From positions 22,375 to 86,374 of the forward strand of contig JBHLPF010000005.1 in NCBI GenBank assembly GCA_048939765.1: 64,000 nucleotides of DNA, in the 5' to 3' direction. The position numbers were made by a program, and so were the translations under genes. Each line of letters begins with the position of its first letter. Position 1 is the stretch's first letter. Origin of the DNA: Promethearchaeota archaeon (GTDB lineage: Archaea; Asgardarchaeota; Thorarchaeia; Thorarchaeales; Thorarchaeaceae). Below, one piece after another: positions 4,659 through 11,870 of the stretch. The notes beneath the pieces were generated by a model. It ran no database searches, was not told where the DNA came from, and saw only the letters and a program-made list of their open reading frames with translations.

Positions 4659-4751
4659 TAAATAGGCCAGAACTCATTTTAATTTTCACTCGCGATTTTG
4701 TGCTCACACACCATAAGACGAATAAGAGTCGACGGGAATGAAACCTTGATT

Positions 4752-5798
4752 ATGAAAGAAGCGGTGCTCTATTCCAGCCTTAAGGAAGGAGTCAGATGTG
4801 ATCTATGCGCCCGGAGGTGTGTCATACATGAGGGCGAGACCGGATTTTGTAGAGTAAGAAGTCTGAAGGAATCCAAGCTATACACATCCGTCTATGGGCT
4901 GATTGATGGAATGGCAGCTGATCCAATAGAGAAGAAACCGCTGTTTCACTTTGCACCTGGTTCTAGAACGTTTTCTATTAGTACCTCTTCGTGTAATTTC
5001 AGATGTCAATTCTGCTTGAACTATCATTCCTCACACCGTGAGAGTCCAGTAGGTCACCAAATGAGTCCTGAAGCAATTGTCACTCAGGCTGAACGAACAG
5101 ACTGCGCTGGAATAACGTACACATATACTGAGCCCACAATCTTCATGGAGCTTGCACATGATACTGCAAAGATAGCAAACTCGAAGGGAATGTTCAACAC
5201 ATTTGTCACAAATGGCTACATGACAGAAGAGGCGGTAGATTACATAGCACCGTATCTTGATGCAGCATCTGTGAACCTCAAGGGGAGTGCCAACAAGGAG
5301 TTCATGCAACAATACATGGAAGTTCCTAAGCCTGAACCTATCTATAATTCAATGGCCCGTATGAGAGAGAAGGGCATCTTCATAGAAATCACAAATCTGA
5401 TTATTCCCGAGATTGGCGATCATGAAGACGACACAAGAGCATTAGCAGAGTGGGTGGTGGATATTCTTGGCCCTAGAACTCCACTTCACATCATTGCATT
5501 CTCTCCCACTTTTAAGATTACGAACATTCCCCGAACTCCAGCAAGAATGTTGGAGAAACACATCAAGATAGCAAAAGAGGTAGGATTGACTTTTGTATAC
5601 TCTGGAAACATTGGTGGACATGACTATGAGAATACCTACTGTCCAGAATGCGGCTTTAGGGCTGTAGAACGCTATGGAGTCTATTTGAAAAAGAACCATC
5701 TGAATGAACAGGGTCATTGTCCGAAATGCAATGCAGACCTGAATATTCAGGGAGTGCAATGGATGGGCGAAGGTACTCCACGTTTGACATTTTTCTAG
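4752..5798 (+). CDS. amrS: AmmeMemoRadiSam system radical SAM enzyme
   Basis: N-terminal CDLCARRC..GFCRVR, DPIEKKPLFHF, CNFRCQFC, YTYTEP, C-terminal CPECG/CPKC; ATG at 4752 preferred. Confidence 0.93.
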   Translation: MKEAVLYSSLKEGVRCDLCARRCVIHEGETGFCRVRSLKESKLYTSVYGLIDGMAADPIEKKPLFHFAPGSRTFSISTSSCNFRCQFCLNYHSSHRESPVGHQMSPEAIVTQAERTDCAGITYTYTEPTIFMELAHDTAKIANSKGMFNTFVTNGYMTEEAVDYIAPYLDAASVNLKGSANKEFMQQYMEVPKPEPIYNSMARMREKGIFIEITNLIIPEIGDHEDDTRALAEWVVDILGPRTPLHIIAFSPTFKITNIPRTPARMLEKHIKIAKEVGLTFVYSGNIGGHDYENTYCPECGFRAVERYGVYLKKNHLNEQGHCPKCNADLNIQGVQWMGEGTPRLTFF

Positions 5799-5809
5799 GA
5801 GTCTTCGAA

Positions 5810-6703
5810 ATGCAGGTGATGAATGTTCTCTGGCGACCTACAGGTCAGGACACCTTCGAATCCGGCATCAGGGTTTGGCCAGATGAATCAGACACCCCAA
5901 TATTCCTGGCCCTACCCTCAGAGTACGATGTGGAGTGGACCATCCTAGGGCCCAAGCGCTGTATTGGTCATTTGGATTCACAAGGCACGCCGGTGAGATG
6001 CCCTGAGAACAGTCTAGTTCGCAGAGGTATGCGTCGATGTGGTCCGTGTTCCGCAATGGACGAAATAGACCAATGCATTCGTTGTGATGGTAGCTACTGT
6101 AATGCGAGTGAAGAGCGAAAGGAGCGGTGCTTTTCAAGCGAATATGCCGTCTATCTTGCCGTCTTCAATGATGGTACTCTAAAGATTGGTGTTTCTTCGA
6201 GGTCTAGGGTAGAGACCAGATGGGTTGAACAGGGTGCAGACTATGGTGGAGTGATTGGGATCATCGAAGGAGGTTTGAGGGCCCGTCAGATTGAGCACAA
6301 ACTGGGTGCTAGATCTGCTGTAAAGAAACAGGTCAGAGCTGAACGCAAGGCTATGCACCTCTTGAAGCCTATTGGTGGGGAAATAGCTCAAGAAATCGCT
6401 CAAGGATTTCTTGACACTGTCAAGGAGAAAGAGATTGAATCTGAAATCGCACTTCAGGACTTATCAGACCACTATCATATCGATTCATTGAACGCAGAAC
6501 CTCAGAGATGGAGGTCGGGAAGAACTCCGGTCGAGGAACTGCAGTTAGCAGGACGGGTTGTAGGCATGAAAGGGTCATTGCTTGTAACCCGAATTGGTTC
6601 AGCTTTCACAGTTGCAAATCTGTCAGAGCTAATCGGCTACTCCATAGATGATGCTTCTGAGGTGCGAATTACTTCTCAAACAGGCCTTCTTGATTTCTTA
6701 TGA
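5810..6703 (+). CDS. DUF2797-family protein
   Basis: RCIG..CP..CGPC..C..C, VYLA..LKIGVS..RWVEQGAD, GxVVGMKGSLL. Confidence 0.8.
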   Translation: MQVMNVLWRPTGQDTFESGIRVWPDESDTPIFLALPSEYDVEWTILGPKRCIGHLDSQGTPVRCPENSLVRRGMRRCGPCSAMDEIDQCIRCDGSYCNASEERKERCFSSEYAVYLAVFNDGTLKIGVSSRSRVETRWVEQGADYGGVIGIIEGGLRARQIEHKLGARSAVKKQVRAERKAMHLLKPIGGEIAQEIAQGFLDTVKEKEIESEIALQDLSDHYHIDSLNAEPQRWRSGRTPVEELQLAGRVVGMKGSLLVTRIGSAFTVANLSELIGYSIDDASEVRITSQTGLLDFL

Positions 6704-7702: not shown

Positions 7703-8533
7703 TTGTCCATTGATACAACAAAGGTCAGATACATCTCTCTTATCCGAATGGAAGGCGGAGAGTCAGTTCTCAACGTTCCCTACGCTGAGATGACCGTTGA
7801 TCCGGACCTTATTGCAGGCTTTGTGACGGCGGTGATCATCTTTGCCAAGACTCCAATTCGAACAATAAGAAAAGCTGCGTATGATATTCTAATTGAAGTT
7901 GGAGAAACTGTGTTGGTGCTTCTTGTCGTTGACCCAGTTCCGGATGAATCTCCATATCGTGAGAAGCTCAAGAAGATTCTACAGAATGTTGAATCAACGC
8001 ATGGCAGGAAACTGAGGGATTTTGAGGGCGATGTCAGAATATTCAGGGATTTTGCTCTAAACATTATCAAAGAGTTTCCATACATGGAGATCGACCTTGA
8101 TTTGGTGCCTATACGCAGGTCTGGAGGATCTCGAATAGGCTTTCGTGTTGGCGATGTTGATAAGAAGCTCGAACAGGTTGAAGCCTTCATCAATGGAAAA
8201 CGCACTGTTGCAGAGATACTTGATTTGATTGGTCTGCCAGAAGAAGAGGTTCTCGCGGCTATCTCTGCTCTTGCCAAGTATAAATGGATAGGCTTCAAAC
8301 GCAGGCTTACCGAGAATGATATTCTTGTACGCAATGACTGTCACGACGTAGATATTGACAAGCTTCGAATCCAATACGAAGCCAATGCAGTAGATGGTTT
8401 GATTGCTAGTTTTGATGGTGTGAAATCGATTACCGAAGTCTTTCAATCATTGCAAAATGATCGCTATGATCGCAATGCACTTTGGTTTTTAATTCACAAG
8501 CTTGTAGAATACGGTTGCCTCACTCCTGCCTAA
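7703..8533 (+). CDS. Longin + tandem winged-helix protein, paralog 2
   Basis: Collinear with the 6750 gene (KVRYISLIRMEGGE, VDPDLIAGFV, GDVRIFRDFAL, DLVP, FINGKRTVAEI, FDGVKSITEV). Confidence 0.75.
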   Translation: MSIDTTKVRYISLIRMEGGESVLNVPYAEMTVDPDLIAGFVTAVIIFAKTPIRTIRKAAYDILIEVGETVLVLLVVDPVPDESPYREKLKKILQNVESTHGRKLRDFEGDVRIFRDFALNIIKEFPYMEIDLDLVPIRRSGGSRIGFRVGDVDKKLEQVEAFINGKRTVAEILDLIGLPEEEVLAAISALAKYKWIGFKRRLTENDILVRNDCHDVDIDKLRIQYEANAVDGLIASFDGVKSITEVFQSLQNDRYDRNALWFLIHKLVEYGCLTPA

Positions 8534-8539
8534 TGTGAG

Positions 8540-9364
8540 TCAAAGCGGAGTATCATTTCCGGGTATTCCAACAACATCGCTTCTACATTGCTGACAATGA
8601 TGAAACTGTTCAATATAGGCGGAAGCAGTCTTTCTTGCCATTGCTATTTCATGCTCCGAAGGTGCTTGCATCTGTATCATATTGGCGTTTGGGACCAGTG
8701 GTACGATATTATGAAGAGTAGCTCCAGCTTTCGAGATGCTTCTAGCCAAGGAGCCAATGTCGCCCCCGTTTATGGATGGAATAAGAATTGAATTCACCTT
8801 TACACGAATGCCAACGCTACTTGCTCTGCAGATTCCATCCAATTGTTTCTCAATCACGCGTTCACCCATCTTCTCGCCCCGCATCAGATTCCCATCTACT
8901 ATTGCCCACTCATAGATTCTCGCCGCAGAGTGAGGATTGACTGTGCTTATTGAAACTGACACTGTTTCAACATTGAGTCGCAGAAGGTTCGGAACATGTT
9001 CAGCTAGTAAAACTCCATTTGTGCTTATGCAGAAGTGGATGGCAGGAAACGCCATTTTGACTCGCTGAAGAGTGCAGAGTGTTTCATCATTTGCCAATGG
9101 CTCTCCAGGGCCTGAGACAGCCACGATCTTAAGGTTGGGTCTTTTCTCGATTTCCTCAACAGCTCTGCCTGCAGCATCTTCAGGTGCCATTAGGATTCGA
9201 GAAGTACCAGGCATGCTAGTATGGCAGGCAGAAGCGAGCGCTCTATCACAGAAAGCACATTTCACATTGCACACTCTTGCCACCGGTAGATGAATCCGCT
9301 CCCAGATATTGTGCCTGGATTGAGACCAACACGGATGGAATTCTGAGGGATAGGCTTGCTGCAT
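8540..9364 (-). CDS. nifB: Stand-alone NifB-like radical SAM protein (divergent)
   Basis: HPC, RIHLPVA, CNVKCAFC, SGPGEPLAN, CISTNG, KVNSILIP, C-terminal CQQCRSD. Confidence 0.8.
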   Translation of the reverse strand: MQQAYPSEFHPCWSQSRHNIWERIHLPVARVCNVKCAFCDRALASACHTSMPGTSRILMAPEDAAGRAVEEIEKRPNLKIVAVSGPGEPLANDETLCTLQRVKMAFPAIHFCISTNGVLLAEHVPNLLRLNVETVSVSISTVNPHSAARIYEWAIVDGNLMRGEKMGERVIEKQLDGICRASSVGIRVKVNSILIPSINGGDIGSLARSISKAGATLHNIVPLVPNANMIQMQAPSEHEIAMARKTASAYIEQFHHCQQCRSDVVGIPGNDTPL

Positions 9365-9375
9365 TGCTTTGTCAC

Positions 9376-9768
9376 TCAGGTAAGGTCTCGAAGAATCTTG
9401 CTTGCCTCCCTCGCCGTGCGCTTCGCATCATTGAAGATTAGCCCTAAACTCGCATTTTCAGGGGCAGTTACGGCAAGGAGGTATTCTGAGGGCATTGCAA
9501 TTACGAGTGTAGAGCCTCGGCTTCCCTGGATTATTATGGATTTGAGATTCCCCTGACGTAGTTCCCGTACTGCTTGTTCTCCCGCGGAATGAATGCCTGC
9601 CACCATTGCAGCCACCGCAACCTCTTCAGTTCTTCCATGAAAATGGCTCACGAGCGGCAGTCCTTCCACAGAAAGGATGGCGGCACCCAGTATTGGCGAA
9701 TTATTTGAGAGTTTCTTCAGAACCTCTTTGAGAATGCTAGGCATATCTTCCGCGACAGGCTTTGCCAA
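9376..9768 (-). CDS. Roadblock/LC7 (MglB/LAMTOR-like) protein
   Basis: GAAILSVEGLPL..VAAMVAGI..L.QGNLKSIIIQGSRG..LAV..SLGLIF. Confidence 0.9.
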   Translation of the reverse strand: MAKPVAEDMPSILKEVLKKLSNNSPILGAAILSVEGLPLVSHFHGRTEEVAVAAMVAGIHSAGEQAVRELRQGNLKSIIIQGSRGSTLVIAMPSEYLLAVTAPENASLGLIFNDAKRTAREASKILRDLT

Positions 9769-9879
9769 CTTCCATCCCTCGAAATGAATAAATCATCTCT
9801 CAAACGGCACTACTATGTCTTTTGGGAGGCTGGCAGCAAATAAAGCTTGGGAGCATATGTCCTGCAGCCTGGTTTCAGT

Positions 9880-10881
9880 CTATCCTATGAGTCTGACTGA
9901 TGTCACAGTGTCACTGTATATCAAACGAGCGGGAGTCTTCATGATTCTCAGAACATTGTCTGCATGTTTCGCCATTCCGACATCGCGCAACATATCAACG
10001 AAATCTAGACCTGTCGTTACTGCTAATCCCTTCAGGGGCTTACCTACTCTGCAAGACTCGAGGAGGTCATCAGCAGAAACAATTTTGCATCGTAAGCCAT
10101 CACCAACATGCTTCTGCAAATGAGAAATTCCTTTTCTTGCTATTCCCTTGTTTTCCTTTTGTTCAGTAGTATAGACTCTTCTCTTTGCAATATTGCGGAG
10201 TCTTGCCAGTCCTCTTTCGATGACTTCTTCTGATGTTATTGTGGCTCCATAGAGATAGCTTACATCTTTGGTAGTTGAGGTCACGAGCCACGCCGTACCA
10301 TAAACCGCTTGGTATCGCATTCCTTTGAGTATCTCCGACTCACTGAGAAGTGTAATGGAACGATATCCCTTGTACTCAACTGAGATTGTCCAATCTGGGT
10401 CCTTGTGTTTCACCATGAGATCTGGACTCAGACCCTCCCCAGTCGAGGGGACACTCGTTTCTACGTCAGGAAATAAATGAGTGATATATCCATGAAATGC
10501 CTCGTGAAACAGGTTGTGCCTGAGATTCCGCGCTTCCTGAGGATGGCGAAGACCGGCCTCCTGATAGAGAACCGGCATCTCCATCTTTTGGCCAGTCTTA
10601 AGCCGAACTTCGCTCTTTGTGGTCTGTTTTCCTCGGGCGTGATTCTCTTGTACAAGGCGAATCGCTGCAGTTCTTCCAAGAAGACGAAACATAGACTTTC
10701 CAAGTTCTATACCCTGGGGTGGCTTTTTTCCATCCTGCTTTCTTTTCGCTTCTTTATAGGCCCAGTCCACTACTTCCTGAGCATCTTCATTGAGCAGATA
10801 GAAAATCGAGCTAAGTTTCTCTCCCAGATTGTACCTCCTCACATACTTCTTCAATTCTGGAGCATACTTAATTCTTCCCAA
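9880..10881 (-). CDS. Restriction-endonuclease-like PD-(D/E)XK protein
   Basis: FHEAF..ETSV..PDLMV..SVEYKG motif spacing. Confidence 0.55.
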   Translation of the reverse strand: MGRIKYAPELKKYVRRYNLGEKLSSIFYLLNEDAQEVVDWAYKEAKRKQDGKKPPQGIELGKSMFRLLGRTAAIRLVQENHARGKQTTKSEVRLKTGQKMEMPVLYQEAGLRHPQEARNLRHNLFHEAFHGYITHLFPDVETSVPSTGEGLSPDLMVKHKDPDWTISVEYKGYRSITLLSESEILKGMRYQAVYGTAWLVTSTTKDVSYLYGATITSEEVIERGLARLRNIAKRRVYTTEQKENKGIARKGISHLQKHVGDGLRCKIVSADDLLESCRVGKPLKGLAVTTGLDFVDMLRDVGMAKHADNVLRIMKTPARLIYSDTVTSVRLIG

Positions 10882-11599: not shown

Positions 11600-11617
11600 G
11601 CCTGACTATTCAGTGTC

Positions 11618-11827
11618 TTATATCAGTTTCACATCATAGTCAAGTGCTTTCGCTTGAATGTACTTCATACATGCTGTTTTCAATTGATTTAGTGGCAACC
11701 AAAAAGCCTGAAACTCCTCCAGCTCTCCTTTCGTCGTCTTTCTCAGCATGGTATTATTCACGCGAATGAGCATTTCATCCTGACCTATCGCCTGAATCGG
11801 ATTGATTCTGGCGCGGGCATTTGACAT
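11618..11827 (-). CDS. Small hypothetical protein
   Basis: 69-aa ORF co-oriented between two real genes. Confidence 0.45.
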   Translation of the reverse strand: MSNARARINPIQAIGQDEMLIRVNNTMLRKTTKGELEEFQAFWLPLNQLKTACMKYIQAKALDYDVKLI

Positions 11828-11870
11828 CCGAGTTGCTCATCACCTCTAGGGAAACATACTGTATCTAATA

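Follow-up and report, generated by a model that had tools for sequence, protein, structure and literature searches.

NifB belongs to the radical S-adenosylmethionine (SAM) enzymes and builds the iron-sulfur-carbon core of the nitrogenase cofactor. Until 2025, its product was known only from nitrogenases; since then, it has also been found in the complex that activates methyl-coenzyme M reductase (MCR) and in a nitrogenase-like C-S lyase. L-cluster-like centres are present in the MCR activation complex, whose L-cluster-binding subunits are McrC and Mmp7, and the NifB of non-diazotrophic methanogens has been proposed as their supplier (PMC12176620). The supply of clients other than nitrogenase has precedent (PMC12176620, PMC13474568), and many NifB homologues of archaea have been described as having clients "of unknown identity" (PMC13474568). 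NifB has been reported in TACK archaea, Asgard archaea and Euryarchaeota, and its occurrence in Asgard archaea in general is already known (PMC12176620). The clade described here is a variant with a rebuilt plug loop and an operon shared with a Roadblock/LC7 (Robl) protein. It came to light in a window of 64,000 nucleotides (nt) from the Promethearchaeota archaeon assembly GCA_048939765.1 (GTDB Thorarchaeaceae; 3.37 Mb, 88.5% complete), whose GTDB family is named Thorarchaeota in public records. The gene of interest, P0001, encodes a NifB-like protein of 274 amino acids (aa) and directly follows the Robl gene. Our literature searches found no papers on NifB in Thorarchaeota.

Six fingerprint motifs define NifB (PMC5715403), which makes NifB-co ([8Fe-9S-C]) out of SAM and two [4Fe-4S] clusters. 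In the solved structures, the 8Fe K-cluster is held by the bridging Cys of the HPC motif, a His and a Cys of the core strands and two C-terminal Cys residues (PMC10114646). The canonical plug loop carries a Cys that caps the SAM cluster and the Glu of the ExRP motif, which caps K1 as a labile ligand. Both residues are described as strictly conserved, and replacing either greatly reduces the formation of NifB-co while SAM cleavage persists (PMC8179604). The second Thr of the TxTxN motif touches the ribose of SAM, like a Ser in MoaA (PMC8179604).

On balance, we consider the Thorarchaeota protein to be, probably, a working NifB/NflB-family synthase of an eight-iron core that serves a client other than the known ones. 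TIGR01290 (nifB) was by far its best NCBIfam match (E = 4e-66, 223.5 bits), and in a PDB search its nearest solved structures were those of NifB (6y1x, 7bi7 and 7jma), with E-values of 1e-55 to 1e-57 over residues 4-271. An AlphaFold2 (AF2) model calculated from an alignment of 112 relatives had a predicted local distance difference test (pLDDT) score of 88.9. The top Foldseek matches of this model were again NifB (7jmb, 7bi7 and 6y1x; E = 1e-27, TM-score 0.83-0.93); no other radical SAM fold scored better than E = 1e-9. According to the model, the protein has the three-dimensional fold of NifB.

Motif conservation was counted over 112 members of the clade. Forty-one positions were invariant, including every metal ligand; all five K-cluster ligands (Cys12, His25, Cys112, Cys257 and Cys260) were among them. 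The C-terminal signature Cx2CRxDAxG reads C257-Q-Q-C260-R-S-D-V-V-G, with both Cys residues and the Arg, Asp and Gly invariant and the Ala replaced by Val. In place of AGPG, residues 84-87 read SGPG in 104 of the 112 sequences and AGPG in the other 8, and the GPGE core was invariant. In place of TxTxN, residues 136-140 of the window protein read SVSIS; the last position was Asn in only 8 members, and the ribose-contacting position was Ser or Thr. We regard the SGPG and S-x-S changes as conservative from the comparison, a Ser at the ribose position occurring in MoaA too. Judged from the alignment, everything needed to bind and fuse the double cluster appears to be retained. The motif readings of the first-pass annotation (HPC, Cx3Cx2C, CxxCRxD and the Cys after the SAM motif kept; TSMP, SGPG and SVSIS altered) all proved accurate; the retained His25 and Cys112 were not among them.

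The plug loop has been rebuilt. In canonical NifB, it has the sequence C-x(0-2)-E-x-R-P-G; the clade has C47-H48-[T/S]-x-[K/R/M]-P-G. His48 was found in 111 and Cys47 in 100 of the 112 members; the position of the ExRP Arg was Lys or Arg in 87 and is Met in the window protein (TSMP, residues 49-52). Residues 43-53 formed the sole disordered internal stretch of the AF2 model, with pLDDT values below 50. The NifB of Methanothermobacter has an adjacent Cys and Glu (C52-E53), and the Thorarchaeota clade has an adjacent Cys47 and His48; it is reasonable to infer that the Cys-His dyad may take over the job of the canonical Cys-Glu pair. With the loop rebuilt in this way, the control of SAM cleavage and the exact product may differ.

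Homologues with 45-90% identity were numerous and came almost entirely from assemblies named Thorarchaeota, with Sifarchaeia, Lokiarchaeota or Promethearchaeota as the label of a few. When 400 genomes of the phylum were searched, 71 of the 85 other genomes of the window's family, spanning 16 genera, had the gene; outside the family, only ten genomes yielded matches, at 34-43% identity. Among 1.8 billion representative sequences, a drop in score from 258 to 220 bits set the clade apart, with about two hundred NifB-family clusters following.

Quick phylogenies were calculated under the LG (133 rows) and posterior mean site frequency (PMSF; 72 rows) models. The clade was monophyletic in both, with approximate likelihood ratio (SH-aLRT) values of 95 and 97 and a stem of 0.25-0.37, and fell among short, single-domain forms in trees whose deeper backbone was without resolution. 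Its tentative sister was P0217, a long branch placed with moderate support (SH-aLRT of 92-94) on that same backbone. The nearest branches (P0217, P0135 and P0265) are bacterial and belong to nitrogen fixation-like (NFL) systems, their genes having NifH-like and Oxidored_nitro genes as neighbours; Methanomethylicia NifB came next. Canonical nif-type sequences scoring above the TIGR01290 cut-off lay at the opposite end of the tree, and other Asgard homologues joined other clades (that of G127 with Methanomethylicia, that of G308 with P0130). As the first-pass annotation had proposed, the enzyme is a divergent relative of NifB; it is not nested within the canonical nif-linked group. On sequence grounds, we assign it to a branch of the NifB/NflB family that is specific to this archaeal family, has divergent motifs and is not canonical NifB by fingerprint or by curated score.

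Several arrangements of NifB relatives elsewhere were recorded in passing. The nearest non-Thorarchaeota relatives lie in bacterial nitrogenase-like clusters. In one of these (L041:2937-10824), NflD/K/H precede four radical SAM genes and a methyltransferase, and a CHAT/NB-ARC gene adjoins the cluster; two more (L039 and L040) combine NflD/H with genes for a nucleoside phosphorylase and an Opp/Dpp-type ABC transporter. Fusions in the NifB family included an N-terminal NifX-like domain and a NifN-like-NifB-NifX triple (P0133, P0160, P0161; P0196, P0235, P0263). Descriptions of the N-terminal NifX form are rarer than those of the C-terminal one.

We searched for possible clients of the enzyme in 86 family genomes, of which 23 are at least 90% complete. 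NifDK/EN-type proteins (PF00148), McrC (TIGR03264) and Mmp7 (TIGR03274) were found in none of them; control genomes behaved as expected for PF00148, and both methanogen controls were positive for McrC and Mmp7. In the whole assembly of the source genome, PF00148 gave no match and NifH none above the cut-off, and Mmp17 and Mmp3 were not found. NFL genes (NflH/NflDK) were absent from the window, the genome and the family. The first-pass statement that the 64 kb contain no nif genes thus holds and, for NifDK/EN-type genes, extends to the whole genome. With no NifDK/EN-type protein, McrC or Mmp7 found in the family, the clade fits neither known use of NifB.

Elsewhere among Asgard genomes with NifB homologues, G125 and G128 carry McrC, the homologue of G007 adjoins a PF00148 gene, and G127 and G308 have neither. 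The co-occurrences in G125, G128 and G007 are consistent with use of NifB in MCR activation and with D/K-type use. In G127, from another Asgard family, the homologue is 43% identical to P0001 and was the nearest non-Thorarchaeota sequence in the phylum search. It lies directly after an HdrA/MvhD-fusion - MvhG - MvhA [NiFe]-hydrogenase operon and overlaps its end (contig C60, locus L056:347-5914), an arrangement that may be a lead to a client linked to hydrogenase or heterodisulfide reductase.

NifX-like carriers were considered as a missing link. Three NifX-like (PF02579) genes occur elsewhere in the source genome, on contigs C18 and C35. On C18 (locus L045:7474-9984), two tandem NifX-like genes precede a pair of genes for MinD/ParA-type ATPases that contain ferredoxin inserts; C35 (locus L046:7767-8606) has a DUF134 and NifX-like pair. 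Of 151 good Asgard genomes, 129 have PF02579 whether or not NifB is present, and 8 of the 40 good family genomes with the enzyme lack it; we set these carriers aside as uninformative.

The enzyme is clearly under purifying selection, three to five times weaker than that on its neighbours. Its frame was intact in nearly all genomes, and the pairwise ratio of non-synonymous to synonymous substitution rates (dN/dS) was 0.10-0.23 in 12 of 13 genome pairs, dS being saturated in the other. In most pairs, the ratio was 0.03-0.07 for the Robl gene and 0.02-0.10 for the convergent gene that faces the enzyme gene. Relative to the nearest congeners, the enzyme was 78% identical and the neighbours 93-96%.

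The proposed mechanism is as follows. Two [4Fe-4S] units would be loaded beside the SAM cluster, and SAM would be used to fuse and modify both units into an L-cluster-like eight-iron core. The product would then be handed to a client outside the NifDK/EN-like, McrC and Mmp7 families. Throughout the family, Robl would be transcribed together with the enzyme. The first-pass suggestion that the enzyme may build a different metallocluster remains the best reading, widened to allow for the same cluster made for a different client.

Several observations weigh against a working eight-iron synthase. The Glu of ExRP was absent from all 112 clade members, and the plug-loop Cys was missing from 12 of them. 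The window protein does not reach the curated TIGR01290 cut-off of 343.65 bits, other single-domain NifBs scoring 377-383. The enzyme also evolves three to five times faster than both neighbours, and no acceptor of its product was identified. The genomes behind the client absences are metagenome-assembled, and the searches covered known families only; L-cluster sites need few ligands and are not recognisable from sequence. The main rival, which we consider rather unlikely, is that the chemistry has changed: the cluster sites would be kept while NifB-co is no longer made, the reaction stopping at a carbide-free, fused [8Fe-8S]-type product or the sites holding auxiliary clusters for another radical SAM reaction. 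Strictly, ExRP, AGPG and TxTxN all differ, three of the six NifB fingerprints (PMC5715403). The TIGR01290 scores of the clade, 185-224 bits, are as low as those of NFL-linked homologues, and both the lack of known L-cluster clients and the weaker constraint on the gene would also fit such a change. However, the invariant K-cluster ligands and the CxxCRxD strap are hard to explain without a NifB-like double cluster, two of the three fingerprint changes are conservative, and the near-invariant His48 beside Cys47 resembles the C52-E53 pair of Methanothermobacter. That the gene is a non-functional relic, left from a nif, NFL or MCR system of an ancestor, might be suggested by the absence of a client and by the faster evolution, but this is hardly credible for a gene with intact frames, dN/dS ratios of 0.10-0.23 and 41 invariant positions that include every metal ligand.

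The role of Robl is a separate question. The gene order Robl, enzyme, convergent gene was conserved in all 30 related loci, with the convergent protein 64-96% identical, and five public contigs, at 48-57% identity, showed the same wider synteny. The Robl-enzyme spacer was 3-14 nt in all 28 loci in which both frames could be delimited, and the TTG or GTG start of Robl was at the same position in 28 orthologues. The adjacency is thus a property of the whole family and not of the source genome alone. In the window, the spacer measures exactly the 11 nt given in the first-pass annotation, which implies from the sequence that the two genes are co-transcribed and that their translation is probably coupled. 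The Robl orthogroup, defined at 50% identity or above, occurred only in the window's family and always beside the enzyme; elsewhere, the best matches were at most 44% identical. Because the genes are adjacent and the genomes are drafts, their joint presence and absence is not independent evidence.

No genuine uncoupling of Robl and enzyme was found in the family genomes. G369 was discarded as a case of Robl without the enzyme, a scaffold gap of 100 N beginning 50 nt after Robl; this "single-contig" genome of 2.6 Mb is in fact scaffolded, gaps of 100 N recurring every few kb (L055:9468-9567, contig C1), and gene absences from it are unreliable. G391 was discarded likewise, its contig ending inside the neighbouring gene. 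Robl was also considered as a divergent NifX-like carrier, as the N-terminal NifX-NifB fusions suggested, and was rejected at an hhalign probability of 0.07%. The literature searches found no pairing of Robl with a radical SAM protein.

The first-pass annotation had linked the enzyme, as an Fe-S/SAM sensor, to roadblock/longin signalling and to NPRL-like nutrient-sensing scaffolds. A sensor of Fe-S or SAM state that binds Robl and feeds GTPase-type signalling would suit the conserved operon, which converges on two genes in every locus, and the family-restricted distribution shared by the Robl orthogroup and the NifB-like clade. We nevertheless consider it very improbable. That shared distribution is subject to the limit of adjacent genes in draft genomes, none of the 33 Ras-family GTPase matches in the genome lies on contig C55, which carries the pair, and no Robl gene stands beside the other Asgard NifB homologues in the five loci examined. 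The SAM motifs and every cluster ligand are kept, as expected for an enzyme, and the slower evolution of Robl and the convergent neighbour suggests a core role independent of the enzyme. What is left of the proposed nutrient-sensing link is co-transcription, and as read from the sequences functional coupling beyond that is so far unsupported. It is quite possible that the pair simply shares a transcript and that the functions are unrelated, Robl acting with GTPases or with the convergent neighbours and the enzyme with an unlinked client. Asgard roadblock proteins have been described as partners of small GTPases (PMC10933270). The very different rates of the two genes and the restriction of the adjacency to one family also suit unrelated functions, and NifB relatives elsewhere are paired or fused with NifX-like, NifN-like or NFL genes, never with Robl. 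Against this stand the short spacer, which has persisted across 16 genera even as enzyme identity fell to 45-50%, and a Robl orthogroup seen only where the enzyme is.

The broadest form of the synthase reading is that the enzyme makes an L-cluster-like eight-iron centre, possibly with carbide, for a third class of client that is neither nitrogenase-like nor involved in MCR activation, with Robl as gate, chaperone or hand-over platform. We hold this to be unlikely as it stands. If true, cluster chemistry of the nitrogenase type would exist in a close relative of the lineage of the eukaryotic ancestor, and it would give roadblock proteins a role outside the control of GTPases. A ligand-complete NifB relative across an Asgard family in which no known client family was found offers a clean natural case for a new user of an L-cluster-type centre; alternatively, it may show what the NifB scaffold does with a rebuilt gating loop.

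The features of the locus are listed in the table. The Robl_LC7 domain of the 130-aa protein scored 56.1 bits against a gathering cut-off of 23, and its best solved relatives in a PDB profile search were the Asgard roadblock proteins 7f8m and 9jue (E = 3e-19). The pair probably has a promoter of its own in the intergenic region upstream of Robl; related contigs likewise have about 100-120 nt of intergenic sequence ahead of Robl.

Table. Coordinates of the features of the Robl/NifB-like locus, in window positions
Feature	Position	Strand	Basis or remark
Roadblock/LC7 gene, 130 aa, TTG start, first of pair	9376-9768	-	PF03259, E = 3e-15
Spacer from Robl stop to NifB-like ATG, 11 nt, without Shine-Dalgarno-like sequence	9365-9375	-	sequence read
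NifB-like single-domain radical SAM gene P0001, 274 aa	8540-9364	-	PF04055, E = 3.5e-15
HPC motif, His10-Pro11-Cys12	9329-9337	-	invariant; Cys12 = Cys bridging the two K-cluster halves in 7BI7
His25 (RIHLP), equivalent of K1-cluster ligand H31/H42	9290-9292	-	invariant; aligned to solved NifBs
Radical SAM Cx3Cx2C, CNVKCAFC, residues 32-39 (Cys32, Cys36, Cys39)	9248-9271	-	invariant
Rebuilt plug loop, residues 44-53, A-S-A-C47-H48-T-S-M-P-G	9206-9235	-	clade alignment
Cys112 (CISTNG), equivalent of K1 ligand C115/C128	9029-9031	-	invariant; aligned to solved NifBs
C-terminal C257-Q-Q-C260-R-S-D, residues 257-263; Cys pair = K2 ligands C260, C263	8576-8596	-	C257, C260, R261 and D263 invariant
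Upstream intergenic region, 111 nt, two TATA-like TTTATT boxes	9769-9879	-	sequence read
Convergent 276-aa gene, context only; stop 6 nt from NifB-like stop	7703-8533	+	no significant Pfam or PDB match

For the convergent 276-aa protein, the Pfam scan returned only a weak, sub-threshold match to a winged helix-turn-helix (wHTH) domain. Upstream of Robl, two genes encoding proteins of 333 and 224 aa were tried as parts of the system and treated as context, a gap of about 110 nt separating them from Robl. They look DNA-related (coiled-coil/wHTH, a PD-(D/E)xK-like motif and TopoVI neighbours in relatives), although the evidence is weak. The 333-aa gene (9880-10881) had no family match; its product contains a PD...E-x-K-like stretch, PDWTISVEYK, and the leads from an Atlas feature search were weak, the best scoring 0.88 and a PDDEXK_3 cluster 0.86. 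At 11600-11870, the window has only about 270 nt where other Thorarchaeota contigs carry TopoVI-B and TopoVI-A, between an AN1-finger/M50 protease gene and the gene for the 224-aa coiled-coil protein; the TopoVI genes are missing from that place in the window's genus, and also in G369. At 4698-6703, upstream of the two genes on which the operon converges, a DUF2797 gene follows a radical SAM gene of the AmmeMemoRadiSam system (TIGR04337; its 290 bits exceed the cut-off), an arrangement kept in relatives.

Compared with the single-domain archaeal NifBs of Methanothrix thermoacetophila (6Y1X) and Methanothermobacter thermautotrophicus (7BI7/7JMA/7JMB), the Thorarchaeota enzyme is of the same length class, has no NifX domain and shares the fold, the radical SAM, K-cluster ligand and GPGE motifs, and 33-35% identity in Foldseek. 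It differs from them in lacking the Glu and Arg of ExRP (TSMP in the window protein; T/S-x-K-P in most of the clade), in its Cys-His dyad, in having SGPG for AGPG, SVSIS for TxTxN and CRSD for CRAD, in scoring below the TIGR01290 cut-off and in belonging to a genome and family without nitrogenase. Like the MCR-linked NifB of non-diazotrophic methanogens and alkane oxidisers (PMC12176620), it is a single-domain protein kept in archaea that have no nitrogenase, and Methanomethylicia NifB is among the nearer branches of the tree. Unlike that NifB, it is found in a family whose 86 genomes have no McrC or Mmp7, and the NifB homologues of the McrC-carrying genomes G125 and G128 are 34-38% identical to P0001, outside the 45-100% range of the clade. 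The nearest non-Thorarchaeota branches, which belong with the NflB/MarB/IsrB enzymes (PMC13474568), are also single-domain proteins with low TIGR01290 scores and without the ExRP Glu; unlike NflB, the Thorarchaeota enzyme has no NFL genes in its window, genome or family. Set beside the Asgard roadblock proteins 7F8M, 7F8F and 9JUE and bacterial MglB, the product of the upstream gene is a plain Robl_LC7 domain of 130 aa. Unlike the roadblock proteins that partner GTPases, it has no GTPase gene nearby, belongs to an orthogroup of a single family and is always encoded directly upstream of a radical SAM enzyme.

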